Made by a program: the position numbers and the translations under genes. Below the pieces are notes generated by a model that was given only the letters and a program-made list of their open reading frames with translations, was not told where the DNA came from and made no database searches. A stretch of DNA of 64,000 nucleotides from an uncultured virus (IMG/VR IMGVR_UViG_3300046692_000582). Taxonomy: Duplodnaviria > Heunggongvirae > Uroviricota > Caudoviricetes. Below, piece by piece: positions 2,575 to 64,000 of this stretch. Positions within the stretch are counted from its first letter, which is position 1. Each line of letters begins with the position of its first letter. The DNA lies in IMG/VR virus record IMGVR_UViG_3300046692_000582; one strand, given 5' to 3'.

Positions 2575-2797
2575 TTATCTCTCCTTCTTTTGTCCAAATT
2601 ATACCATCCTGCTTAGTTCTTTGATCCGCAATGGATGATCTTCTCAAAAAATCATTGCAAATTTGAGGAATAGTTTGTTTTTACCTTTGTTTTTAGGTCT
2701 GGGTAACACTAGATCTGTTGCTGGCCGAGCGACAATAATATTGACTTTATTAGCTGCATTATTTATATTAAATGCAAATCACAGACCGGACAAAGCT

Positions 2798-3865
2798 ATG
2801 CGCCACCTCGTTACCGTTCGCCGAATTTCAGCCATTGAATCCATCCCCAAAGCAGATCGCGTTGTGCTCGCGACCATTGATGCCTGGAATTGCGTGGTTC
2901 CTAAAGGTGATTTTGAGGTTGGCGACCTTTGCGTCTATTTTGAGATTGACAGTTTTTTGGTTCAGGGCCAGGAGCGCTACGAGTTTCTGATGAAGGACGC
3001 GGTTATATGGGAAGGCCAGATCGGCGTTCGCATTCGTACGCGGCACTTCCGTAATCAGGTGTCGCAAGGTCTGGCTCTGCCGCTGTCTAGCTTCCCTGAT
3101 GTCGCCGCTTTGATCCAGGGGCTGGATGCGGTTACCATTCGCGGCATGGACTTCACCGAAGTGGTTGGCGCTCAGAAGTATGAGCGAGCCATTCCAGGTG
3201 AGCTGGCTGGAGCAGTGATTGGCGCAAAGCCGACTTACATTGCCACAACCGGTGAAGAGCGGATTCAGAACATCCCTGAGCACAGGATCGAGCATGCGAA
3301 CAAGCTGTATCATCGCACCGTCAAGCTCGATGGCTATAGCTCAACCATTTTCAATCACTCCCACTGGGGCGAAAGTGGCGTGTGCGGGCACTACTGGTGG
3401 TATGACGAAACCCAACCGCTCGATGAAACTCAGCCAAATCCCTACGTTCAAGTGGCGCTTGAGTCCGGAATTCTGGACGCGGTTCGCCGCTATGGTCGCA
3501 ACATTGCGCTTCAGGGCGAATTGGTGGGGCCGGGCATATGCGACAACATTGACGACTTGCCAGAAAAGCAGTTCCGTCTGTTCAATATCTGGGACATTGA
3601 TAAGAGCCGTTATCTGAGCCAGGACGAGCGTGCCATTATTCTTGCTGATCTCCAGGAGCTAGGGGTTACCGTACTTCAGGTGCCATCGCTTGGCATTGTA
3701 CGATTGGGCGACATGGGCTCCATTGAGGACATGATCAAAGCCGCCACTGGGCCATCGCTCAACCCTAAAGTAAACCGTGAGGGTGATGTCTACAGCGCCG
3801 TCGATGGCAGTGATTCGTTCAAGGTGATTTCCAACGTATTTCTGATGACCAACCCTGATGCCTGA
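2798..3865 (+). CDS. ATP-dependent RNA ligase, DRB0094 (Rnl5)-type
   Basis: N-term LVTVRRISAIESIP..AD, GDLCVYFEIDS; motifs KLDG, QGELVGPGI, FRLFNIWD, REG, SFKVISN. Confidence 0.9.
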   Translation: MRHLVTVRRISAIESIPKADRVVLATIDAWNCVVPKGDFEVGDLCVYFEIDSFLVQGQERYEFLMKDAVIWEGQIGVRIRTRHFRNQVSQGLALPLSSFPDVAALIQGLDAVTIRGMDFTEVVGAQKYERAIPGELAGAVIGAKPTYIATTGEERIQNIPEHRIEHANKLYHRTVKLDGYSSTIFNHSHWGESGVCGHYWWYDETQPLDETQPNPYVQVALESGILDAVRRYGRNIALQGELVGPGICDNIDDLPEKQFRLFNIWDIDKSRYLSQDERAIILADLQELGVTVLQVPSLGIVRLGDMGSIEDMIKAATGPSLNPKVNREGDVYSAVDGSDSFKVISNVFLMTNPDA

Positions 3866-3940: not shown

Positions 3941-4453
3941 ATGAGTACTGTTTCAGAAGCTGTCTCCAAAGCGATCAAGGTTCGCGATCTTGTGTGGAGC
4001 GGACATCTCCCTGTCGAGACATGCCGTATTGCAAGGGATACGGTAATCATCCGTGATGGATGCCGCTTCGAGGTTGTCACTCGCCCCATTGAAAGCGGTG
4101 AGACGGCCAGTAGTCGCGCATTCTTTGACGAGAAGGAGCAGAAGTATGTGTGTCAGTGGAATGACAATGAGATTTTCAATCGATCAAATTTCGCGCTGGC
4201 CCATGCCCTGGGTCATGTAGTCCTCGGCCATGTGAAGAACCCTGCTGTGATTAAGCAGACCTACACATTCAGCTTGAAGTCCGAGAATCTCGAAGACCGT
4301 GCTGCGACTGCTTTTGCGATGGAGCTGCTACTTCCTGCGCGACTTGTTCGTTTCCTTTTTGGGGGCGCAAAAAACGTACAGGAATTGGCGGAAGCCTTTG
4401 GCGTATCAACAACGGCAATCACTCATCGCATCAGAGAGCTGCGCCTTATTTGA
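3941..4453 (+). CDS. ImmA/IrrE (DUF955)-like metallopeptidase homologue, HEXXH altered to HALGH
   Basis: NFALAHALGHVVLGH, FAMELLLP, C-terminal LAEAFGVSTTAITHRI HTH. Confidence 0.85.
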   Translation: MSTVSEAVSKAIKVRDLVWSGHLPVETCRIARDTVIIRDGCRFEVVTRPIESGETASSRAFFDEKEQKYVCQWNDNEIFNRSNFALAHALGHVVLGHVKNPAVIKQTYTFSLKSENLEDRAATAFAMELLLPARLVRFLFGGAKNVQELAEAFGVSTTAITHRIRELRLI

Positions 4454-7338: not shown

Positions 7339-7977
7339 TTACATCGAGCCAGGGGAGCTTTCGGCAATCGAAAGAATTGATGCCCTGCCGTTGTGGTAAC
7401 GGAAACTCCAGTAGGTCTGCTCGCCCAGAGTGGCTTCACGCACCTGATAGGTGATGCCCGGACGCGCAGCGTTCAGATGCGCAGCGGCTGACACTTCGTT
7501 ATCAAAGATCTTGTTCTCGTAGATGACAAAATCATCCGCGAGCTTGACGAAGATCGGAGTTTCCGGATTATCTAGCAGGCTGGTTCGGTCGAGGTCAATT
7601 TGCAGAACTAGATCCATCAGGTCCAGAATCTGCGTTTGGGCTTCCACTTTCTCATTGAGAAAATCCAGTAGCTCAGTGGCATTATTAATCGCAGCCAAAT
7701 AGGCCTGCGTACTCACCAGCCGATCCGCGTCCTTGTCCATGCCGTCACTGCCGCTGAAGCGAAGTTTGTACTCAACAAACATGTCGCCCAGCTTAGGACC
7801 CGTCGTTTGGCCGTAACTGCCCAGCTTGGAGAAAGCTACCTCTACTGTGACTGTATCGGAGACCCAAAAGCCTACCGGTCGGTAGTTGATGAGCAGAAAG
7901 CCGCCGTGAGTTGGATCAAAACGCCACGAAGGTGTACGGGTGAAACGAGGATCCGCTTGAAGTGCAATGGCTTTCAT
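7339..7977 (-). CDS. paralogue family A member 2
   Basis: FTR..INYRPVGFW, VREATLGEQTYWSF; promoter TTGACA-17-TATTAT. Confidence 0.8.
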   Translation of the reverse strand: MKAIALQADPRFTRTPSWRFDPTHGGFLLINYRPVGFWVSDTVTVEVAFSKLGSYGQTTGPKLGDMFVEYKLRFSGSDGMDKDADRLVSTQAYLAAINNATELLDFLNEKVEAQTQILDLMDLVLQIDLDRTSLLDNPETPIFVKLADDFVIYENKIFDNEVSAAAHLNAARPGITYQVREATLGEQTYWSFRYHNGRASILSIAESSPGSM

Positions 7978-8035
7978 ATCGCTCTCTTAAATGGCGTCTG
8001 AGTAATGAGTGAATAATAATCCAGCGCCGCGCATA

Positions 8036-8052
8036 TGTCAATACTACTGACA
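8036..8052. promoter_or_regulatory. TGTCA-N7-TGACA operator on -35 box
   Basis: TGTCA ATACTAC TGACA. Confidence 0.75.
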
Positions 8053-9640: not shown

Positions 9641-9937
9641 TTATGCCTGAAGGACCGGTTCGTTATTGTTTTCGGTATAGGGTTCAATGAAATCAGCAAT
9701 CTGCTGGTGTAGATTTTCTTTTCTGATTACCTTTGAACCCAAATCCAACACTTTTCTGCCTTCACTGAGTGCTTTGGGTGATTCAGCAAGAATCAAAAAA
9801 GTCACTCCGGAAGGTCCCGAGCCATCCAGGTATGTTTTGACTAATTGTGCGTGCAAGCCATCCGGCATACTTTCAAAAAATTTCATGTACGCATTTTGGA
9901 TTATTTCTTGATTTTTGTCGTCCATTGAATCTTCCAT
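9641..9937 (-). CDS. hypothetical protein
   Basis: 98-aa ORF abutting upstream gene. Confidence 0.55.
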   Translation of the reverse strand: MEDSMDDKNQEIIQNAYMKFFESMPDGLHAQLVKTYLDGSGPSGVTFLILAESPKALSEGRKVLDLGSKVIRKENLHQQIADFIEPYTENNNEPVLQA

Positions 9938-10312
9938 TTATGAATGTGTTGGTTTAATTTGCATGGCATTCTTATGAGCGATCACTTTCTGTCTAAGCTG
10001 TCCGTCTTTCTTAAAAAGCTGAGTCAGTTGCTCGTCATATTCTTTTGCGCGCTGTAGGCATGAATCCCGAAATCCATCAGTGAGCATGTCAGCTATTTCG
10101 ATTTTATGCTCTTTAAAAACGTTGGTAACCTCATCATAATCTGCACACTTAAGCATTAAATCCCTGTCGCGCTCTAATTTAATTGCCCTTTTAACGTTAG
10201 CGTCAGGTTTTTTGAGTATTTTTGAGATGATTAGGGCAAAAAAATACATTGTCACAATGACCAGCACACTGATGAGGAAGCTTAGATCCTCCATTTTAAT
10301 TTGATTTTCCAT
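9938..10312 (-). CDS. membrane-anchored coiled-coil protein, family B member 1
   Basis: N-term TM, FRDSCLQRAKEYD motif. Confidence 0.75.
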   Translation of the reverse strand: MENQIKMEDLSFLISVLVIVTMYFFALIISKILKKPDANVKRAIKLERDRDLMLKCADYDEVTNVFKEHKIEIADMLTDGFRDSCLQRAKEYDEQLTQLFKKDGQLRQKVIAHKNAMQIKPTHS

Positions 10313-17224: not shown

Positions 17225-18307
17225 ATGACCATTATCAATCGTTTTGAATCAAAAGATGAATTTCTGAAGTTTCGTGATCACGTGGCCAAGGTTTTGGCTG
17301 CCAAGAGCGTCATCTTCAAGCCACGTAAGCTTGATGAGCTGGTGGCGCAGATCGCAGGAGCTTCTGATTTCAATACAGCCCTGGCCATGTGTGCAACGCC
17401 GCCTGGACGGGTCGTCGTTGAGGCTGATCCTGATGCTAAGGGGGCCCTGACTCATGGACTTGGCTATGCGGTGCCAGCCAGCCTGACGACCAGCGTTGGT
17501 GGCTTTGCTACTCAGTTTGATGCCGCTGCGTTTTTTGAGAACTGCCTGAAGCATCACAGCTTGTTTCAGATGCTGGCGATGCTGGATAGAAAAGGCAACC
17601 CCGTTGGGATTGCAGCAGCCACCTTCATGGCCAAGAGTAATCCTGCCGTGGAGTGCATCCTTGAGGAGTGCGCAGATAAAGGTTTTAAGGTCACTGTCAC
17701 CTTCGATCTGACAAGCATTCGTGATTGGATAACCTCGTCGCATCAGTGGATTATCGCGTCTTGGTTTACATCAAGGATCACCCAGGAAACCCTTGAGCCA
17801 GTCAACTTTTACGAACTGAATCGTCAATATCCTGATCTCTGCTACCACACTGATGGAGAGCCTGACACCCAGGTATTCTTGAGCGCGATGGGTCGAGATT
17901 TTAAGCTCAAGCCCTCCCGCTCTATGAAATCCTCCAGCGGCCATTTCTTCAAATGGAGTTACCAGGGTCGCGAGCATCCAGTTCGATTTGAAACCAAAAT
18001 TGATGCCATTATCAACTTCATGGATCATATGGCTCTGGTGCTTGTTGCTGAAGGTCAGATTGATACGCCGATCAATCCGCTATTGACCCACTACATGGTG
18101 GTGGATGCGGGCGTCTGGGGCTCTGGAGCAACCCTTGAGGAAGCGCGAAGCAACAAGCCGTACTACCAGAGTGCGCCGCTGACGGCATCGACTCAGGTCT
18201 ATCGCTGTACTCCAGGAACGTACATCAATGACGATGGCGGCATTTCACGCCCCCGTAACGATCCAGCGCCGGTTCGCGTTGACCACAAGACCGGCCTGCC
18301 ACGGTAA
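17225..18307 (+). CDS. hypothetical protein with N-terminal helical domain of the glyoxalase-superfamily-annotated type
   Basis: GGAG RBS; LDELVAQIAGASDFNTALA. Confidence 0.65.
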   Translation: MTIINRFESKDEFLKFRDHVAKVLAAKSVIFKPRKLDELVAQIAGASDFNTALAMCATPPGRVVVEADPDAKGALTHGLGYAVPASLTTSVGGFATQFDAAAFFENCLKHHSLFQMLAMLDRKGNPVGIAAATFMAKSNPAVECILEECADKGFKVTVTFDLTSIRDWITSSHQWIIASWFTSRITQETLEPVNFYELNRQYPDLCYHTDGEPDTQVFLSAMGRDFKLKPSRSMKSSSGHFFKWSYQGREHPVRFETKIDAIINFMDHMALVLVAEGQIDTPINPLLTHYMVVDAGVWGSGATLEEARSNKPYYQSAPLTASTQVYRCTPGTYINDDGGISRPRNDPAPVRVDHKTGLPR

Positions 18308-18381
18308 TTAAGTTCACAAAAGGCCCATCCAAAAATGGATGGGCCTTTCAAGAAAAAAAGTAAATCACCCCGAAGGGTAGG

Positions 18382-18582
18382 ATGATGAAGGTTGAAATTT
18401 ATGGCGTTAAAAACCAGTCGGAGGTCAAGGATTTCCGGCTGGATCAGCTGTATACCGTTGTATCTGAGGAAGCTAGCAACTACACCATTCTTGATGACAA
18501 AGGCAAAGAGGTTGTGGTGTCCAAACCAATGCATCGTTGCCCGCACCTTCCTATCGGCGGCTGGTGGGAATGCGTTGAGTAG
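18382..18582 (+). CDS. small hypothetical protein
   Basis: RBS, 66 aa. Confidence 0.55.
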   Translation: MMKVEIYGVKNQSEVKDFRLDQLYTVVSEEASNYTILDDKGKEVVVSKPMHRCPHLPIGGWWECVE

Positions 18583-18720
18583 CTTACAGAAACATGCGAG
18601 CCGTTACTTTAATCTGTTGAAGACTTGAGGTGGATCGTCCCTGAATGGGACTATCCACCTTAACGTTTCAGAAGGCCGTTATGTGGGTGAACACTTTCCT
18701 GGGTCGGCAGCATCTAACGC

Positions 18721-21262: not shown

Positions 21263-21793
21263 TTATGCGGTCAGGACGCACTGAAGCTCATGCAAAGCAT
21301 CCTCTATGGTTCGCTCACGTATTTCGCTCCGACCCAGCTTAGGGTCATACTGTTTTTGAATGGCAAAGGCTCGCCATGGCGTCGCCACGCCGATCCAAAC
21401 GGTGCCGACCGGGGTTTCCTTGGTTCCGCCCCCTGGGCCCGCCACGCCGGTTACCGCGATGGCATACGTTGAGTTGGCGCGGTGCATGCCGCCAAGCGCC
21501 ATTGCAATAGCCACATCGTGGCAGACGGGACCTTGCTCAGCCAGCAACTCTTCTGAAACGCCAACCAGACCTGCTTTGTGCTCGTTCGAGTAGGTGACAT
21601 ACGCCACTTTGATCCATTCCGAACTGCCGGGTACTTCGGTGATGGCCTGAGCAATGCCGCCTCCGGTCAATGATTCTACTGTTGTAACGGTAGCCTGTTC
21701 AGCCTTGAGCGAATTACCCAGCTTGACGCATTGTTCGTAGTGCTTGTTCACACTCAAATTCCTTGATTCGGTCGGAATAACGCTGATCGTCAC
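21263..21793 (-). CDS. pncC: CinA-family NMN deamidase (PncC)
   Basis: ESLTGG, PGSS, VTYSN..K, TGVAGPGG, PVGTVWIG motifs. Confidence 0.9.
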   Translation of the reverse strand: MTISVIPTESRNLSVNKHYEQCVKLGNSLKAEQATVTTVESLTGGGIAQAITEVPGSSEWIKVAYVTYSNEHKAGLVGVSEELLAEQGPVCHDVAIAMALGGMHRANSTYAIAVTGVAGPGGGTKETPVGTVWIGVATPWRAFAIQKQYDPKLGRSEIRERTIEDALHELQCVLTA

Positions 21794-25817: not shown

Positions 25818-26453
25818 GTATTCACCATGAGCATTTTTGATTGTTCAAGATCGCAAAGGGATATTGTTCGACAAAACGGCGGAGGACAAGTGCGCCCATT
25901 GCTGGGGTGTGACATCCAATGTGCCTGCGTTGAATTGCTGATCAATTTGATCGACGACATTGGCTATTGCAGCGTTGGATGTCGCCTTGTGGACTGCATC
26001 CAGCGCCTCCTCAAAATCACAAAACGACAATGTGGCCATGACTCTTGTGCCTCTATTTTGACTGATTTGTAGCGCCCGCAATTGAGAGCCTTTTCAGCGG
26101 CTCAAGTAGCTCATTCAGCCTGTTAAAATGCAGTTTGTGGCGCTCCATGTTTTCCACATACTGCTTAGTTCCTGGCACAGGCTTATTGGCAGAATCAAAA
26201 GCCCGCACGGTTTCCTCTTGCTCATGAGAGATGTTCTCCAGAAGCAAGGCGAGGCTAAATGACTCGTCCTTTTCTGTAATGGACTCAGCCATCGATAATT
26301 TTCCCGTTAACATTTGCCGTAACCAGAAATATCAGCAGCAAGCGCTCTTTGAGCGAAATCACCAACGTGCTCTCACGCTTCCTCGCACTGACTTGGCCGG
26401 AAACGGTCTCTCAACAGGACGAGAACAGCCGAATATTGCTACGAACTGCTCAG

Positions 26454-26663
26454 TTACAGGCTCAGGAATGAGGCTTGAGCGCTTGTGAAGGCCTGTTCTT
26501 CGATCTGGCCCATCATCGCATGCATCTGGTTAGCCAGATCACGGCGCAAGTCCGGTGTGAGCGGCTTGTCGGAATACAATGTATCCATGATCCGGCGCAG
26601 CTTTGCTTGCTGCCCAGGCTCAATGTAGTAACCGGCGATGTCGTTTTTTTCAGTGTTGCTCAT
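26454..26663 (-). CDS. hypothetical protein
   Basis: AGGA RBS; LTPDLRRDLAN motif. Confidence 0.6.
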   Translation of the reverse strand: MSNTEKNDIAGYYIEPGQQAKLRRIMDTLYSDKPLTPDLRRDLANQMHAMMGQIEEQAFTSAQASFLSL

Positions 26664-47431: not shown

Positions 47432-47692
47432 ATGAAAAATGCATTTGTTGCTCTGGTTACTGGTCTGGCCCTGATGGCTGGCGCTTCGGCTTTCGCAGGT
47501 GAAGGCGGCGGTGCAGACGGCGGTAGCCGTACTGCTGATCTGGCGCAGTCCCATGCCAAGCAAGCCACTGACGCCTACGCGGCCAAAGAGGCGGCGAAAA
47601 ATGGCACCCAGGTTGCAGTCGTGCAAAAGGGCGGTAAGGTTGGCAAGGCCAAGACCGACGCCAAGCCTGAGTCCGAAACTGCCCAGAACTAA
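47432..47692 (+). CDS. PtrA-like small periplasmic protein 3
   Basis: AFA-GEGGGADGGSRTA; start placed by alignment with paralogues. Confidence 0.8.
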   Translation: MKNAFVALVTGLALMAGASAFAGEGGGADGGSRTADLAQSHAKQATDAYAAKEAAKNGTQVAVVQKGGKVGKAKTDAKPESETAQN

Positions 47693-47966
47693 GGGCAGTT
47701 TCACCCAAAAGCCCGCGATTATTCGCGGGCTTTTTTGTTTCCGCGATTTGTTTGCCTAAGAGCGCCGACCTGCTCCCTGTCTTTTTACAATAACGACATT
47801 CCAGCCGCCACTTAAAAAACAGTACAAATAGCTGATAATTTAATTGACATATAATATGAATCTATCTACAATAGCCCCATCAACGAGAGACATGGCAAAT
47901 CAGCCTTTCTCCCGGCGAATCACTAAATACTCGGCAATTTGCCAATCCATTTAAAAGGAACAAAGC

Positions 47967-48167
47967 ATGAAAAAAGCATTCGTAGCAATGATCGCTGGTA
48001 TGACCCTGATGGCTGGCGCTTCGGCATTCGCCAAAGATGGCGGTGGTGCTGACGGCGGTAGCCGCACCTTCGATCTGTCAGCGGCCCACACCAAGCAAGC
48101 CATGGACGCCTACGCGGCCAACAAAGCGGCACAGGGTAACACCCAGGTCGCCACCGTCCAAAAGTAA
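47967..48167 (+). CDS. PtrA-like small periplasmic protein 4
   Basis: same signature. Confidence 0.8.
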   Translation: MKKAFVAMIAGMTLMAGASAFAKDGGGADGGSRTFDLSAAHTKQAMDAYAANKAAQGNTQVATVQK

Positions 48168-48180
48168 GGTCGGTTGCCAG

Positions 48181-48212
48181 AAAAAAGCCCGCGATGATTC
48201 GCGGGCTTTTTT
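48181..48212 (+). terminator. repeated intrinsic terminator of the PtrA-like array
   Basis: AAAAGCCCGCGA-TGAT-TCGCGGGCTTTTT; related copies at ~47162, 47707, 48602, 49058. Confidence 0.9.
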
Positions 48213-48389
48213 GTTGCATGAATTTTTTGTGCAAATAAAAGTGTGAAAAAAGATGATATTTTAATTGACACTTATTATAGATTAATCTATAATAAGCACA
48301 TCAAAGAGAGACAAGGCCCTTGTTAGCCAGTCTCCCTGCGAACAACCAAAATCGGCATTTTCGCCATTGCTCTCCATAGGAAGACCCTC

Positions 48390-48587
48390 ATGAAGAAAGT
48401 TCTCGTTGCTGTAGTTGCTGGCATGACCCTGATGGCTGGCGTTTCGGCTTTCGCCAAAGATGGCGGTGGCGCTGACGGCGGTAGCCGCACCTTCGATCTG
48501 TCGATGGCGCGCAACCAGCAGGCCATGACTGCCTATGCCGCCAATCAGGCTGCCCGTGGCACCCAGGTCGCGACCGTCCAAAAGTAA
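48390..48587 (+). CDS. PtrA-like small periplasmic protein 5
   Basis: same signature. Confidence 0.8.
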   Translation: MKKVLVAVVAGMTLMAGVSAFAKDGGGADGGSRTFDLSMARNQQAMTAYAANQAARGTQVATVQK

Positions 48588-48831: not shown

Positions 48832-49050
48832 ATGAAAAAAGTTCTCGTTTCTCTGGTTGCTGGTCTGACTCTGATGGCCGGGGCTTCTGCCTTTGCAAAA
48901 GATGGTGGTGCTGATGGTGGTAGCCGTACCGCTGACCTGAGCGCTGCTCACACCAAGCATGCAATGGAAGCGCATAAGGCCAAGCATGCCGCGCACGTCA
49001 AGAAGGAAGCTCAGCCTTCTGCCGAAAAAGCTGTAGCAGTACAAAAGTAA
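48832..49050 (+). CDS. PtrA-like small periplasmic protein 6 (His-rich)
   Basis: same signature; HTKHAMEAHKAKHAAH. Confidence 0.8.
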   Translation: MKKVLVSLVAGLTLMAGASAFAKDGGADGGSRTADLSAAHTKHAMEAHKAKHAAHVKKEAQPSAEKAVAVQK

Positions 49051-49123
49051 GGTCGATCAAAAAAAGCCCACAATGATTGCATTGTGGGCTTTTTTGTACC
49101 TGCAATTAATTGGAAACCGAAAA

Positions 49124-49438
49124 ATGGCATTCAAGAAAGATAAGGATAGACGTCTCATTGGCGTCATTAGGGACAATATCAAGAGTGGCACGTTGTTCAA
49201 TGCAGGATTTTATTCCTGTGATGAGCTGTCTCGGGTAGTGCAGGCTGTGATTGAAGATGTGCAGCGGTACGATTCTCTCACTATTGTTCGCCCGGCTGAG
49301 CGTTGGAGGCCATCTGACGGCCCCGTTCTTTGGTGGATTCTTCCAGTCACCGAAGCGCCTTTTGTAGGCATTCCGGGTGATCCAGGGTGGGAGTCGAGGT
49401 ACACGCACTGGACGCCACTTCCAGAGCCTTCACTCTAG
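49124..49438 (+). CDS. phage-type protein with DUF551-like C-terminus
   Basis: DGPVLWW...YTHWTPL. Confidence 0.6.
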   Translation: MAFKKDKDRRLIGVIRDNIKSGTLFNAGFYSCDELSRVVQAVIEDVQRYDSLTIVRPAERWRPSDGPVLWWILPVTEAPFVGIPGDPGWESRYTHWTPLPEPSL

Positions 49439-49511
49439 CTTAGTGCTTTGCTCAGGAAATTTAAAAGCGGGAGGCTTGGATGCCTCCCGCTTTTTTGTTC
49501 TGCTGCGGATC

Positions 49512-50204
49512 TTATTCAGCGACTCTGAACATTGGCCGCTGAACTGTCTCTCTTGCTTCGGCTTCTGTCAGGGGCTGCCATGCAGTGACGTTGTACATTT
49601 CCTGCTCCATCCAGTTCACCCAGCCGTCCAACCAATACACATGTGTGTTGGTAGAGGGGTTTTTGGTGATGCCATCGTACCGAATGCGAACACGCTGTCC
49701 CCGCATCGGCACCTTGGGCCATGGCTGCTCATATTCTGGAGAGCCAAAATACGCCTTTCTGTTTTTCTCGTACCAGAAATTGTCACGGTGGTTAGCGATC
49801 CGATAGCGTTCAACCCCACCATTTGCTGGAGAAGTGTCCCACTTCAGGTCATCCACTCGGGTTTGCACTCGCTCGCCATTTTTTAGCGTTGCGTCGACGA
49901 TGACAAATCCTGGCAGTGGAAATTTCCCGAACAGGCTGTCATGCAGCATATCGTATGACCATACGATGGTCGTATCGACACCTATGCAATCTATTTTTCC
50001 TGCTGCTTCAAAGCACAGGTCATAGAAGTGGCCAATATCCGACCCCATGACTCGCATCATGCGTTCGGTGGCGAGCGCAGTTCCCCGGAGGGACTTGTAT
50101 AGACCAGGATCCGTTTTAGAGAGTTCCGGCGTGGCTCGATAGGCCCGGTGCAGCATCAACAGCTCAAGCGATTCGGCAATGGCTTCTGGCTCGATGGCGT
50201 TCAA
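49512..50204 (-). CDS. hypothetical protein, DUF551-like C-terminus
   Basis: VTAWQPL. Confidence 0.6.
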   Translation of the reverse strand: MNAIEPEAIAESLELLMLHRAYRATPELSKTDPGLYKSLRGTALATERMMRVMGSDIGHFYDLCFEAAGKIDCIGVDTTIVWSYDMLHDSLFGKFPLPGFVIVDATLKNGERVQTRVDDLKWDTSPANGGVERYRIANHRDNFWYEKNRKAYFGSPEYEQPWPKVPMRGQRVRIRYDGITKNPSTNTHVYWLDGWVNWMEQEMYNVTAWQPLTEAEARETVQRPMFRVAE

Positions 50205-50901: not shown

Positions 50902-53304
50902 TTAAGCCTTACATTGCCAATTTTGCTCCGTGGTAGCTCCGGGTAGAATTGCGCGTGAACGTGCATTTTGATGCAGTTGCTCGGGCGAAATACCCTCATA
51001 AATGGTGGCAACTGTTTTAACGAGTGGGTGATTTCCCGGTTTCAATGCAAAATTCCAGTTGTCCTCGTTGGTGTAGACCGTGGATTCGCCATTGCGCCGC
51101 ACGCTCAATCGCTCAAGATCGCCGTCATGACTAAGTGAGCGGAGGATCTGAGAGGCAATAAAGCCCCAGCCAGTGTGCCAGCGTTCATTAAACATGCGCT
51201 GATCTGAACGCTCTACCGCATGGTAAGTAATGTAATAGTTTCCTGTGCGCATCTTCAGGGATTCATCAAATTCCATTACGTCATGCGGTTGGTTGAGGTC
51301 AATCAACCGGGTGATTGCACCTTGCTGTTTTGGCGGTTCGGCATCGTGCGTCAGTTTGCCGCTGTACGACCTTGTTCGAATGTACCGAACGATTGATCGC
51401 AACTCTTCTGGAATGCTTTGATCGCCTTTCAGGGTGTCAAATAGCATCTTTGAAGACAGGTCTAGTCTCAAGTGCTGAGAGCCCTTCAAAATGGTTTTTT
51501 TCGTGCTGAAATGCTCAATCAGTACGTGCCGAATCGCCATTGCCTCGATGGCTGCCTTCAGGTAGCGACTTGGGATGCTGTCTGTATCCACAAACCCATA
51601 ACTGAAAGACCTTACTTCGTTGTTATAGCGAACTTTCAGGTCGACCCTGGCGTCATTCTTGTTGTGATAGGCGTTGGAAAAAATGGACATTGCCTGATGA
51701 ACATTCCGGAATTCATCTTGCGGCTGAAAGTCTGACAGGTCATTCACCGTCGTAAACTCTGGCAGGTAAGCTCTGCGCCCTTCCAGTTGTGCCACTTCTT
51801 GCACATACTGTTTTGAGTCTTGAACGTCCGCAATCGCTCGTTGGTGCGCGCTCTGCACATGAATGGTAGCTTTTCCATCACGGACGAGTTTGCCATGAAA
51901 AACGATATGTTTAGATGTACTTTGGCCGTGCAAATACACGCTAGAAGCATCATTTCCGTAGGCTTGATAGAGGTTCCAGGTAAAAATCTCTTCATCCAAA
52001 ATATGATTAAGTCCCAGGTTTTCGTGTTTAACGACCAGGGAGGAGTCCATGTTTTGACATTTAACGGGCTCAACACATTGCGACAGCTTTATTGCCTCAT
52101 TGACGTCGCGCATGTGCTTTTTGTAGTTCAATACCTTTTGGGCGTCCAGCGGCGCATCAAGGGTAAAGGCATCCACTGCTTTCAGTGAATAGTTATCGCC
52201 CGGCTCCACCTTTATATACAGTTCTCGCCACTTCAATTGGCGGTGCAAAAACAGCTCCTTGTCCACTTTTACCAATTCAAAGGTATCCTGGGGACTCGCT
52301 ATGGCTCTGTTCTGTTTTTCAATGGTCCTATTGCCACCCAATGAAAAAGATACGCCCTTGTGCTCAAGAAACTCCATCATCAACTTCGGAATTGCGACAA
52401 ACTCAGACAGTTGCTCGATGCGGGTGTGTACGGGGATTTCAAAAGCCTGCTTCATCAATTTGACGGGCATTCTCGTGGGGATGCATTCTTTCCCGATGTT
52501 CAGATTGAAGGTCTGAATAAAGTCATGCCATTCATCCTGATCCAAATCAAAAGACCGACAATCGCCATTGTAGTCAACCAATACTTCTTTGCCATCAGTG
52601 TCAGTAAAGGCATGAATGGAGTAATTATCTTGCAGAAAAATCCGATTGATCATTCTCTCTTGTCCTTTGAAAAGGACAAATCTATTTCTGTTGCTGTCTT
52701 TATAAAAAAGCGTTTCCTTTTCCAGCGCTTTTGAAAATGCCTTAACGGTTTCCGGGCAATAGTACGTTCCCAGGGAGAACAGAAATTCCTCCACGCGAAC
52801 GCGCTCATCGGTATTGGTTTCTTTAAAGCAGTGGTGATAGCGCAGACCCTTTGGCATTAGCCAGCGGCCATGGGTTGTCTCAAGTGGCATGTGTGTACTT
52901 CGAATCGCGAGCCCGCCCCCGGTATGCTGGGAGCTGACAATGAAGTCATCTTGTTTTGACAGTGTGTGAATCTTATCCGAACTATAATCGACATGGTATT
53001 GAGGTAAAGATGTGGGGGTGATTGCAGCATCTTTGGGGAATTCGGATGCCAAGATCACGTCATCGAGGATCAGGGCGTCGTTTTGTGGTCTCAATAGAAT
53101 CGCAATAGCCGTATCCAGTTGCTCGCTTGATACGATATACAAGGCAAGATAGCGATCTCCGGATGAATATATCGCCATGACATTTCTCAGGGCGTTATTC
53201 AGGCGTTTCAGCAAGATCGGCTTGTCTAGAAAAATTCTATTCGCCTCCTGTGCATCACAGGTGACAGGAACCATGTGAGACTTGCTGACTCTGATGTTGA
53301 ACAC
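50902..53304 (-). CDS. large hypothetical protein (800 aa)
   Basis: long ORF, GAGG RBS, GTG start. Confidence 0.85.
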   Translation of the reverse strand: MFNIRVSKSHMVPVTCDAQEANRIFLDKPILLKRLNNALRNVMAIYSSGDRYLALYIVSSEQLDTAIAILLRPQNDALILDDVILASEFPKDAAITPTSLPQYHVDYSSDKIHTLSKQDDFIVSSQHTGGGLAIRSTHMPLETTHGRWLMPKGLRYHHCFKETNTDERVRVEEFLFSLGTYYCPETVKAFSKALEKETLFYKDSNRNRFVLFKGQERMINRIFLQDNYSIHAFTDTDGKEVLVDYNGDCRSFDLDQDEWHDFIQTFNLNIGKECIPTRMPVKLMKQAFEIPVHTRIEQLSEFVAIPKLMMEFLEHKGVSFSLGGNRTIEKQNRAIASPQDTFELVKVDKELFLHRQLKWRELYIKVEPGDNYSLKAVDAFTLDAPLDAQKVLNYKKHMRDVNEAIKLSQCVEPVKCQNMDSSLVVKHENLGLNHILDEEIFTWNLYQAYGNDASSVYLHGQSTSKHIVFHGKLVRDGKATIHVQSAHQRAIADVQDSKQYVQEVAQLEGRRAYLPEFTTVNDLSDFQPQDEFRNVHQAMSIFSNAYHNKNDARVDLKVRYNNEVRSFSYGFVDTDSIPSRYLKAAIEAMAIRHVLIEHFSTKKTILKGSQHLRLDLSSKMLFDTLKGDQSIPEELRSIVRYIRTRSYSGKLTHDAEPPKQQGAITRLIDLNQPHDVMEFDESLKMRTGNYYITYHAVERSDQRMFNERWHTGWGFIASQILRSLSHDGDLERLSVRRNGESTVYTNEDNWNFALKPGNHPLVKTVATIYEGISPEQLHQNARSRAILPGATTEQNWQCKA

Positions 53305-54041: not shown

Positions 54042-54186
54042 AATGATCCTTAATATTTCATGACCAATTATATCACTGAGCACGCAATTTTGTCAGCAGC
54101 ATCGGCCTTGGCCTTGGCATACAGATTCGGATTTTGATGGTTGATATCAGAAGGTGTAACGAGGGGATATTGCAGGAAATAAGTTG

Positions 54187-54262
54187 TGGCTCCGTGACCA
54201 GGACTCGAACCTGGGACCCAATGATTAACAGTCATTTGCTCTACCGACTGAGCTATCACGGA
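54187..54262 (-). tRNA. tRNA-Asn (GTT)
   Basis: 76-nt cloverleaf TCCGTGATAGCTCAGTCGGTAGAGC...GTT...GGTTCGAGTCC..GGAGCCA with encoded CCA. Confidence 0.98.
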
Positions 54263-54346
54263 ACTAATTTCTCAACTTTGACTATCTTATATTAACCTTA
54301 TTAAATATGCAAGAAGATTTTGTTTGATTAAGGTCACGATGTACTT

Positions 54347-54700
54347 AAAAAAGGGGCTTTCGCCCCTTGGTGTATTGCTAGCCGTTGCCTAGCGAGATCG
54401 ACTATGCCCCTTATGGACTGACCTCGATCAATGGTGCCGCACGGTCCCACACTTGCTTATACAGTTCTCGATATTTTAAGTCGAAAACTCAGCCACCGTG
54501 CCTTGGCGTTGCCAGTGCACGGTAGGGCAGGTCGCTGTTACCTCGTCGTAGACGAACTATCTCTAGTAGCGGGGTGCGACCCTAAGGCCCCTGTAACCAC
54601 CCTTGTCCTGCACAATGTTACAGCATTGCCTGAACAGCCATGTGCTTCATGTTTTTTGACCATCGGGAATATGAATGGTCTGGCTCCTTGTGAGAGCAGA
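54347..54700 (-). ncRNA. candidate stand-alone ~350-nt structured RNA
   Basis: extended -10 TGATATAAT, about 10 stems plus pseudoknot, terminator GGGGC-GAAA-GCCCC-T6. Confidence 0.65.
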
Positions 54701-55048
54701 GTTTGTATTATATCAGCCTTACAATGGACCCACAATAGCTTGAAGTTAAGTTAATGATTCCGGAGACTGCTGTTTCAGTGGCGTCCATGATTCAAAATCC
54801 ACATGCAATTCGCTGTGGACAAATTGACGCTTAAGACATGGGGTCAAAGGACTCAAGTGACATTGCCTTCAATGCCCTGCCCACTACACAAATTGGCCAT
54901 TTTACCGTTTGCTAGGATTTTTCTTCCCTGCGCAGGCGTCACGTCCATTGTCATCTAATTCCAGATAATATATAAACTATTAATTAAATTGTCAATCTAC
55001 AGGATTTCCTCCCTGCATGATTGAACCTCCATCGAGTTTGGAATTAAT

Positions 55049-62757: not shown

Positions 62758-63396
62758 CTACACCTTATCCCGTGGGTCTGCATCTGGATTCCAGACGATC
62801 CCAAAGTCCTTGCGTCGTACCTTGGCGACCCTTCCATCCGGGTGGTGAAACACCAACCCTTCTTCCTCGTGGCGAATTAGCCACTCGCGGATCGCACTGT
62901 ACGAACGCTCAAGTTCCACTGTATCGGCGCCATGGCGGTGCAGCTCATGGCGCTCCAGCCCGTGCGGGTTGAGGCGCACTTTAGGGCCTACCAGCTCGTA
63001 AGTCCCATCTTCCAAGTCGCCAGCATGAGCAAGCGCCTCAAGATGGAGATGGTCAGCTGGATCCCCTTCCCTTACCGGAACCCAACCGGGCCAATGGCCG
63101 GTCTTTTTGTCCGGTGCCGCTTCGCACGGCTCCCATCCTTCTGCGGCTTCCTTGAACATAGCCTCGGTAATCGCCATGTCAGGGTTACGCTTGAAGGAGA
63201 ACAGATGGTGCTTGGACATCTTGCGGGCCATTCGTTTGAACAACCGACCATGTCGCACCATCGCAGCGGAACCGTCTCTTTTGATCGAGGCGATGCCTTC
63301 CCCAGCCAGTACCCACTCGCACCCAGGAACTGGAATGCTGGTGGCCAAGCTGCCGTTTTCACGGTCAATTACAAAAACAGTCTTCATCTTTTTCAT
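62758..63396 (-). CDS. RNA ligase-like nucleotidyltransferase (DUF5565-type)
   Basis: KRDGS, GHWPGWVP, GTYELVGPKV, EGLVF, AKVRRKDFG. Confidence 0.75.
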   Translation of the reverse strand: MKKMKTVFVIDRENGSLATSIPVPGCEWVLAGEGIASIKRDGSAAMVRHGRLFKRMARKMSKHHLFSFKRNPDMAITEAMFKEAAEGWEPCEAAPDKKTGHWPGWVPVREGDPADHLHLEALAHAGDLEDGTYELVGPKVRLNPHGLERHELHRHGADTVELERSYSAIREWLIRHEEEGLVFHHPDGRVAKVRRKDFGIVWNPDADPRDKV

Positions 63397-64000
63397 CGGT
63401 GTATCACCTTGGATAATTGGGTAGTTTTCGATTCCGACCCAGTCACCAATCGCTGATGAGGCGATGAATTGATAATATCTAAGCGCCAACGAGATGTCAA
63501 CAGGATAAACCATTTTTAATTTAGATTTCGTGCCTGCCTAAAGCATCAGGGTTCGTTCTTTAGGGCTCCTTGGCTTTTTCGACTTTTGGATCGAAATTCC
63601 GGAGGACGTCAGGACGCAAATCAAAAGCCTGATGTTCTTCCCAAGTGACTTCTTTGTAACCCATGCCTAGGGCTTCCAGGGCATCCTTGGTTTGATTTAC
63701 AGTGAGTCGGGCGCGGTGCCGTTCGTGAATAAAAAATCGCTCGGACATTTTGCACTCCGCAAAAAGGATAAAGGGATTTTGATGGGATGGATCTGGATTG
63801 ATGCAACGAGTGTTGCACCTCGCCAAACCGTTGGAATTAATGAGTTCCCTTACTTGCGCAGCGTCATTCCGGAAGCAGAACTCACATACGACCGGACACA
63901 CTGGCACTGCGCAAGCTCGCCTGAAGACCATCTCGGGCAATCGCCCCACCAATCGCTTGGTGGCCATTCTTTAAATTCGGGAGTTCCAAACTTACCCCAC

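Follow-up and report, generated by a model that had tools for sequence, protein, structure and literature searches.

The closest described counterparts of the RNA gene analysed here are small RNAs of mobile elements. PesA (SPA0021) is a small RNA of the PAPI-1/pKLC102 conjugative element of Pseudomonas aeruginosa (PMC5493400, PMC3349714). The accessible part of its description presents PesA as the processed product of a longer transcript and places it downstream of pilus and type IV secretion system (T4SS) genes, with an overlap onto the 3′ end of a convergent gene whose function is unknown (PMC5493400). REx-C, as outlined in the available excerpts, is a replication-control module of Pseudomonas plasmids that contains a putative antisense RNA and directly precedes rep (PMC5304414). 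The conjugative-element small RNA RocRp silences host competence in Legionella, according to the portion of the source at hand (PMC6744872). GOLLD and ROOL are characterised, in the part of the report available to us, as structured RNAs of mobile elements that occur near tRNAs in phages (10.1101/2024.12.08.627333). Here we describe a non-coding RNA gene on the minus strand of a 64,000-nucleotide (nt) stretch of DNA from an uncultured virus of the class Caudoviricetes (IMG/VR record IMGVR_UViG_3300046692_000582); the whole stretch is referred to as the window. Positions 54345–54700 form a transcription unit, from promoter to intrinsic terminator, which encodes a non-coding RNA of about 355 nt. 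By sequence comparison, the core of this RNA is a member of a small-RNA family that is absent from Rfam 15 and whose carriers are plasmids, conjugative elements and genomic islands of Pseudomonas. Its members are about 170 nt long, and in the window such an RNA is embedded in the longer transcript. We are highly confident that the locus is a real RNA gene and belongs to this family.

BLAST searches with the RNA identified matches with E ≤ 1e-3 in 16 of 401 Pseudomonas genomes, nearly all of them at query positions 105–190, which correspond to 54606–54521 of the window. The best match, in genome G106, is 87% identical over 90 nt (E 8e-24) and was obtained independently of the covariance model described next. 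The alignment of the homologues delimits a core of about 140 nt with invariant single-stranded blocks and with hairpins that differ in sequence yet pair. The covariance model R1 comprises 137 positions and 39 base pairs and was built from nine seed rows, including the window sequence. Searching 151 Pseudomonas genomes with R1 (E ≤ 0.01) gave eight matches, six strong (119–154 bits) and two weak (about 20 bits); the weak ones, which had been part of an earlier set of 21, were left out of the membership. R1 had no match in 151 other Gammaproteobacteria genomes sampled across the class. The window copy matches R1 over its full length (model positions 1–137 of 137), including the invariant motifs GGUUACAGGG, CGCACCCC, CCUGCCC and GGCUGAG, with a score (Table 1) that is high partly by construction, because the window is among the seed rows. 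A 321-nt query from one relative matched 31 plasmid records, all from Pseudomonas, among them pFKN, pQBR55 and P. aeruginosa plasmids of about 50 kb; it matched no phage record. A search for homologues and covariation had been proposed in an earlier note, made from the letters of the window; the analyses here yielded both, and the association with mobile elements suggested there is borne out by plasmid, conjugative-element and island carriers.

Covariation was evaluated in 25 R1 matches with E ≤ 1e-10. In this alignment, 97.9% of 964 cells are paired and 22 of the 39 pairs have changes on both sides, counts that lean towards the structure because the alignment was fitted to that of R1, and many of its rows are close relatives. 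None of 500 shuffles reached 22, and slid controls gave one to six such pairs. As an independent check, RNAalifold applied to a MAFFT alignment of nine sequences predicted 41 pairs, 14 with compensatory changes. In domain 1, the capping hairpin and the stem have two both-side-changed pairs each. The capping hairpin is paired in 100 of 100 cells, with A-U/G-U/G-C and U-A/C-G variants, and the GGGUG/CACCC stem in 121 of 125, with one double change from G-C to A-U; the register of the stem is ambiguous between GGGUG/CACCC and GGUGG/CCGCU. Both-side changes give strong support to each of the four hairpins that follow domain 1 on its 3′ side; they affect three of six pairs in helix 3, two of four in helix 4, five of six in helix 6 and eight of nine in helix 7. 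Helix 5, placed by R1 within the linker, has no compensatory change and only 91% pairing, and should therefore be dropped from the model. The CCUGCCC segment of the linker is present in all 25 members. The hairpins of the window copy are unlike those of its relatives in sequence and keep the pairing. G-U cells outnumber A-C cells by 101 to 8, which identifies the folding strand as the minus strand, the one with the promoter and terminator. These comparisons establish the conserved fold, its strand and the membership of the core in the family.

The structure derived from the family differs in part from that drawn in the earlier note. All nine complementary segments listed there are fully complementary, and the helices 54543–54547/54551–54555, 54493–54501/54517–54525 and 54463–54471/54481–54489 are confirmed by covariation. 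The GGGG/CCCC pairing (54571–54574/54588–54591) fails, since its inner pair is formed in four of 25 members and it clashes with the capping hairpin. The proposed pseudoknot (54576–54581/54530–54535) is paired in 103 of 150 cells, and two of its six positions in only two and eight of 25 members; it is not conserved. The GUUAC/GUAAC pairing (54537–54541/54593–54597) is formed in 109 of 125 cells, and none of its changes is compensatory. The remaining helices of the note, 54658–54663/54675–54680, 54396–54401/54424–54429 and 54377–54381/54389–54393, are located in the extensions that flank the core.

The extensions on both sides of the core are specific to the window. The 5′ extension is not similar to any homologue and occupies the place of the short 5′ hairpin of the relatives, and the 3′ extension is common to none of them. 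In six of the 17 relatives' flanks printed, a near-consensus TTGACA-18-TATTAT promoter precedes the 5′ hairpin by about 7 nt. This hairpin covaries as well (GCGCC/GGCGU versus GCGAC/GUCGU). In most relatives the RNA ends with the helix 7 hairpin, after which CCGUUUCU follows; one lineage has a canonical terminator there instead. Because they have their own promoter and terminator hairpin, the relatives stand alone as genes about 170 nt long. In the window copy, about 95 nt of other hairpins take the place of the 5′ hairpin, and the gene extends past the last hairpin to a strong terminator that lies about 95 nt beyond it.

The inferred transcription start of the window copy is near 54700. The promoter of the earlier note, TTGTGG-17-TGA-TATAAT, is present as described there, and its terminator at 54347–54368 was recovered by the terminator scan as a 7-pair stem-loop followed by a T-run (two sites in the scanned sequence versus 1.6 expected in shuffles). 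The claim that the region contains no credible open reading frame (ORF) also holds. The minus strand has only ORFs of 65 amino acids (aa), with a TTG start within the promoter, and of 38 aa. On the plus strand, antisense to the RNA, there is an ORF of 107 aa. It has no relative among 5.8 billion proteins (one candidate, none scoring) and is not on record even from the window's own contig, unlike the neighbouring 800-aa ORF. Used as a wobble-tolerant probe, the 107-aa ORF gave 11 pattern matches in viral contigs and 591 in metagenomes, none of which was confirmed.

Table 1. Features of the RNA locus and adjacent gene signals; positions are those of the window.
Feature	Position	Strand	Description
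Promoter-like site	54707–54735	-	-35 TTGTGG 54735–54730, 17-nt spacer, extended -10 TGA-TATAAT 54715–54707; read from the sequence
5′ extension, window-specific	54607–54700	-	Hairpins GCUCU/GGAGC, GACCAU/AUGGUC, CAUG/CAUG, UGUUC-GCAAUG/CAUUGU-GGACA; prediction of minimum free energy folding only
Conserved core	54463–54606	-	144 nt; model R1 106 bits, E 3e-31; BLAST matches (54521–54606); covariation
Domain 1	54572–54602	-	Stem GGGUG/CACCC, invariant internal loop GUUACAGG, capping hairpin GGCC-UUAG-GGUC (54586–54589/54578–54581)
Two small variable hairpins (helices 3 and 4)	54543–54568	-	ACUA-GAGA-UAGU (54556–54567), UCGUC-UAC-GACGA (54543–54555)
Near-invariant unpaired linker	54525–54542	-	GGUAACAGCGACCUGCCC; family consensus GGUAACAGCGUCCUGCCC
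Hairpin (helix 6)	54493–54525	-	CUACCGUGC...GCACGGUGG, inner UGGC/GCCA
Invariant GGCUGAG, then hairpin (helix 7)	54463–54494	-	AGUUUUCGA...UCGAGAACU
3′ extension, window-specific	54369–54462	-	Hairpins 54396–54429 and 54377–54393; complementarity verified
Intrinsic terminator	54345–54368	-	AAGGGGC-GAAA-GCCCCUU, then U6; stem-loop 54368–54351, 7 pairs (5 G-C), 4-nt loop; scan match
tRNA-Asn (GUU)	54187–54262	-	Separate gene, 83 nt downstream of the RNA; ARAGORN; Rfam tRNA model 72.2 bits

Four sequencing runs were compared with positions 54100–55000 by means of Logan contigs. The soil metatranscriptome X2, from a different study than the DNA run that holds the stretch, has a single contig on this region, 198 nt long and wholly within 54434–54631, which hints at expression. 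The contig differs from the window at two positions. The change T to C at 54523 is A to G on the RNA strand and converts an A-U pair of helix 6 to G-U, and the change C to T at 54561 turns a GAGA loop into GAAA; both are structure-neutral. The RNA runs X10 and X21 cover the tRNA only and are uninformative on the RNA. An excess of depth in X1 at 54565–54626 at first resembled a conserved core; it may stem from short chance matches, and real homologues could add to it.

The neighbourhood of the family was analysed by a Pfam search of 144 neighbouring ORFs in 14 chromosomal loci of 9.6–16 kb. Mobile-element and defence genes are found near the RNA: CBASS operons, AbiJ, a serine recombinase with two ParB/RepB genes, and Tn7-like TnsA/TnsB/TniQ, and further ColE2-type Rep with AlpA, TraG, TraX, MvaT and integrases. 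An all-against-all clustering of the neighbours in 15 loci found no protein family adjacent to the RNA throughout, and the largest cluster was a spurious antisense ORF across the RNA itself. The lack of an obligatory protein partner fits a stand-alone trans-acting gene. No tRNA lies within 8 kb of the RNA in 12 of the 14 loci, and in the other two a tRNA-Arg is located about 6–7 kb away. Loci that are otherwise similar differ in the sequence directly 3′ of the RNA, as at a hot spot of cargo insertion. Complete CBASS operons, in which the CD-NTase gene is accompanied by E1/E2 and JAB genes, are located in loci L151 (8174–11653) and L144 (2738–6218), at distances of 0.2–1.7 kb from the RNA and on different sides of it. 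The conjugative-element-like locus L149 has two family copies 6.4 kb apart (1365–1541 and 7915–8051); the second is divergent (49.6 bits), with a large insertion in one hairpin and GAC instead of AAC in the linker. Locus L134 (identical to L152) contains at 1217–1433 a fragment of group II intron domains D1–D4 (Rfam group-II-D1D4-6, 100 bits) without a reverse-transcriptase ORF, just beyond the terminal hairpin of the RNA. The fragment may have been inserted beside the terminator-like stem. A link between group II introns and the RNA was dismissed, as the fragment is on the other strand and in only one of eight loci scanned.

Many of the carriers are conjugative, with TraG, TraH, TraX or T4SS ATPase genes near the RNA, and the fold is strand-specific. 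The locus might therefore be a single-stranded DNA element, whose folded strand provides a single-strand promoter or a site of priming when the element is transferred. We regard this as very unlikely. The consensus promoter upstream and the terminators downstream are oriented with the folding strand, a contig from an RNA library covers the region, and the family is also found in islands without transfer genes and in the phage-like or megaplasmid window. Furthermore, in DNA the 101 G-U cells would become G-T pairs, which are weaker.

Based on the fold and the contexts, a role for the RNA can be proposed. The architecture of the family begins with the 5′ hairpin, followed by a stem with the invariant loop GUUACAGG, capped by a small hairpin, and by two short variable hairpins. 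The invariant unpaired linker GGUAACAGCGUCCUGCCC then leads to a variable hairpin, the invariant GGCUGAG and the last hairpin, which usually doubles as the terminator. The RNA would serve the mobile element in trans. The variable helices may form a scaffold on which the invariant GUUACAGG, CCUGCCC and GGCUGAG are presented to a protein or RNA of the host or the element, and the element may thereby tune the expression of host or element genes. Action in trans is suggested because a gene with signals of its own, a conserved fold and unpaired motifs that do not vary is found on many unrelated carriers without a fixed protein neighbour. As an overall explanation, an RNA gene of this family that acts in trans for a mobile element is moderately likely. 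A decoy role, raised in the earlier note, is neither supported nor excluded by the evidence.

Several observations weigh against this explanation or parts of it. The motif-presenting mechanism in trans is inferred only, and we put it forward tentatively. Extensive conserved structure is unusual in simple base-pairing small RNAs. The pair counts come from an alignment fitted to the structure, as stated above. The consensus promoter scan, which reported six promoter-like sites versus 3.5 in shuffles, does not list the TTGTGG/TATAAT promoter, because its -35 matches three of six consensus bases and the scan requires four; an extended -10 is able to offset a weak -35. The X2 contig may result from DNA carry-over, and such contigs do not contain transcript ends. 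The folding energy is ordinary for the window. When 522 windows of the same size over the 64 kb were folded and energy was regressed on GC content, the RNA region ranked 46th on the minus strand (z -1.36), so that the description of the RNA as highly structured, which holds against shuffled sequences, does not single it out from its surroundings. Finally, in all six plasmids inspected, a convergent hypothetical gene of 188–191 aa ends 15–29 nt after the core, which could mean a role in cis.

The RNA might thus be the cis partner of this gene of about 189 aa, as a 3′-overlapping antisense RNA or by sharing a bidirectional terminator, within a plasmid-maintenance module, and the window copy would then be an orphan without its partner. 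Consistent with such a module, the pair adjoins rep and par genes in small plasmids, and the same gene is present in three of the 14 chromosomal loci, in one of them truncated. These chromosomal copies match YjaZ only weakly (E 2e-11) and fall far short of the curated cutoff, so that the partner would be distantly YjaZ-like. The gene is missing from the other 11 chromosomal loci and was not found in the window by neighbour clustering, whereas the RNA has intact covarying helices there. The overlap with the gene includes at most the terminator hairpin, and the invariant motifs are far from the gene's end. We consider the cis role unlikely and prefer action in trans.

The RNA does not belong to a known class. 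At gathering thresholds, Rfam 15 recognised only the tRNA in the whole window, and at E up to 10 the only matches within the RNA in 54100–55000 (901 nt) were TYMV_upPK (14.5 bits, E 6.9) and snoMBII-202 (14.1 bits, E 8.3), both at chance level. There was no Rfam match in the RNA to tmRNA, RNase P, 6S, SRP, RsmY/Z, CrcZ, group I/II introns, GOLLD, ROOL or known ribozymes, nor to T-box RNAs in 54100–55000 at E up to 10, and ARAGORN found no tmRNA in the window. In the relative L149, the only match was to RsmY, with 19.5 bits and on the opposite strand. The covariance search that the earlier note called for therefore agrees with its central claim of an unannotated non-coding RNA gene on the minus strand outside known families. 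Its further inference, a large new RNA class or a ribozyme, does not stand, since only about 144 nt (54463–54606) are conserved and nothing found points to a ribozyme. A large ornate or self-cleaving RNA of a new class comparable to GOLLD or ROOL would account for a structured RNA that is borne by a mobile element beside a tRNA and has no Rfam match. Conservation is, however, limited to simple hairpins of about 140 nt in total, neither the pseudoknot nor the flanks that bring the RNA to 355 nt are conserved, no ribozyme family matched at E up to 10, and tRNA adjacency is not conserved in the family. GOLLD and ROOL are about 4–5 times larger than the conserved core. Membership in such a class is extremely improbable.

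A sponge for Rsm/CsrA proteins was rejected, because the window copy has GGG instead of GGA in UUACAGGGAUCU, a motif similar to the CsrA SELEX consensus, and GGA motifs are not enriched (three in 137 nt, counted by eye). Like the family, PesA is a Pseudomonas mobile-element small RNA of a few hundred nt, and its setting, as far as the accessible text describes it, is like that of the family's plasmid members (PMC5493400). The PesA locus was placed in pKLC102 by the published primers (L164, about 2795–3061), and R1 with filters off found no match there; its best scores in L164 were 8 bits, outside PesA. The PesA primers, with up to four substitutions allowed, had no match in the family loci examined. 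REx-C resembles the family in that the excerpts describe it as restricted to Pseudomonas, able to move between replicons, present in pPT23A-family and other plasmids, and endowed with a conserved stem-loop core of 175–194 nt with compensatory changes (PMC5304414). We set REx-C apart by position in pFKN alone, not by alignment to the published REx-C sequence: repA is at 44–1357, and the sole R1 match in the 39.6 kb is at 9849–9984, about 8.5 kb from the nearer repA end. In other family loci the RNA is downstream of a Rep gene or far from any. RocRp is an analogue in principle, as an element-borne, stand-alone, trans-acting small RNA that reprogrammes host expression, in the portion of the source at hand (PMC6744872). 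It belongs to another genus and duplicates a small RNA encoded on the chromosome; for the family, no such core counterpart was seen, and the two are likened by description only. No description of the family was found in the full-text literature searched, which leaves out most subscription journals and so gives no proof that the family is unpublished.

Other searches with the window RNA did not find additional relatives. Exact 26-mer and 21-mer scans had no match in viral contigs, JGI metagenomes or GTDB genomes, the RNA has no paralogue within the window, and the tRNA-Asn region of phiKZ has no gap comparable to the RNA locus. A 29-nt match of 86% identity to a Pseudomonas gene (L124, E 0.04) shows that short matches of this kind can be due to chance; the gene is presumably a glutathione S-transferase, by our own reading of its sequence.

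The tRNA-Asn is a neighbour of the RNA gene and no part of the RNA. The earlier note correctly placed the RNA upstream of it, and the expectation of a tRNA neighbourhood does not extend to the family. The adjacency raises the question of tRNA binding. The unpaired GUUACAG and GUAACAG (NAC followed by AG) are complementary to anticodon-loop positions 32–37 of tRNAs with GUN anticodons (Tyr, Asn), so that the RNA might sequester, sense or shield such tRNAs. By eye, UAACAG (54540–54535) is exactly complementary to CUGUUA, which lies in the anticodon loop of the neighbouring tRNA-Asn (GUU). The first motif, NAC-AG, is found in 25 of 25 members, the second has AAC or AAU in 24 and GAC in one, and both codon-like motifs are unpaired in the supported structure. 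By our own estimate, about one in six RNAs of this length would by chance contain 6 nt complementary to a 7-nt loop. As any N in NAC makes one of four codons, only AC is constrained, and the family is not adjacent to tRNAs. The tRNA-binding RNA is thus a candidate from complementarity alone, and an improbable one. Colicin E5-type anticodon nucleases target tRNAs with GUN anticodons. A class of RNAs whose GUUACAG and GUAACAG kiss the anticodon loops of tRNA-Tyr and tRNA-Asn (in variants, His and Asp), and which, for plasmids, conjugative elements and this giant element, protect, sense or sequester the tRNAs attacked by these nucleases, is slightly more doubtful still; if real, it would explain a copy beside an extra tRNA-Asn gene. 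We retain the trans-acting RNA with a host or element partner as the preferred explanation.

The 76 nt of the tRNA-Asn are identical in at least 120 contigs of the Pseudomonas lineage (about 370 by estimate), and among the 80 tRNA-matching rows shown nearly all are Pseudomonas, of the fluorescens, syringae and chlororaphis lineages. This identity points to a Pseudomonas host. The tRNA-Asn of phiKZ is 94% identical to that of the window. One P. veronii record has an integrase and a MobH relaxase after this same tRNA, which indicates that the tRNA is an integration hot spot.

The stretch was found in one DNA run, a rhizosphere metagenome. The 800-aa ORF at 50902–53304 (minus strand) has no Pfam or PHROG family. 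A search of 5.8 billion proteins returned only the ORF itself, encoded on a contig of 876,603 bp, so that the window derives from a very large, largely orphan element; no viral locus was found for this ORF. The carrier is either a giant phage or a megaplasmid. The window is rich in orphan ORFs, few of which are recognised by Pfam and PHROGs. BLASTN of 54100–54800 against phages and plasmids matched the tRNA only, and megablast of 20–24 kb of the window against the same records gave nothing beyond it. A 142-aa phrog_19710 protein has distant relatives in Pseudomonas phages, with no close locus found. Of two RNA ligases, one (2663–3865, plus strand) combines a PHA02142 OB-fold with an RNA_ligase domain, and the other (62758–63513, minus strand) is RLIG1-like (phrog_14301). 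The window further encodes CinA (21263–21793, minus strand), an M78/IrrE-like peptidase (3941–4453, plus strand), an MscS-like channel and a few phage protein families of unknown function. The RNA ligases, CinA, the M78 peptidase and the extra tRNA-Asn suggest RNA-repair or counter-defence cargo.

The covariation-supported family, absent from Rfam, is carried by many mobile elements of Pseudomonas. They include pPT23A-family plasmids of P. syringae, pQBR55 of P. fluorescens SBW25, clinical P. aeruginosa plasmids of about 50 kb, conjugative elements beside defence systems, and the 877-kb phage-like or megaplasmid contig from the rhizosphere, an otherwise orphan giant element that the RNA ties to the Pseudomonas mobile gene pool. 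The invariant unpaired motifs imply a specific molecular partner, the identity of which would show how the elements communicate with their hosts. R1 permits the annotation of a gene that is now blank or labelled as a hypothetical protein.

A second and better promoter-like site, TTGACA-17-TATATT (54995–54967, minus strand), lies ahead of a 33-aa ORF (54853–54954). The start of this ORF resembles that of a 143-aa ORF downstream of the tRNA (TPAxGxKI), and the underlying DNA repeat is at chance level. A 23-nt direct repeat (54004–54026/54917–54939) was discarded, since it has a 9-mer seed, of which about 20 are expected by chance in 3.5 kb by our own estimate.

Folding energy alone is weak evidence for the RNA. 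The 366-nt RNA folds at -127.4 kcal/mol, compared with -109.5 ± 5.8 for shuffles (z -3.08; equalled by one shuffle in 100). For the opposite strand z is -2.62, and for the 257 nt upstream of the RNA it is -1.27. Elsewhere in the window, the stretches 1831–2196, 47459–48434, 18301–18666, 49045–49532, 26109–26474 and 13421–13786 fold far better than the GC-corrected background, with residual z of -4.2 on both strands at 1831–2196 and of -3.0 to -3.5 on the minus strand around 47459–48434. Several of these stretches, which have no Rfam matches, are located in gaps between ORFs, and they may be further structured RNAs or clusters of terminators.

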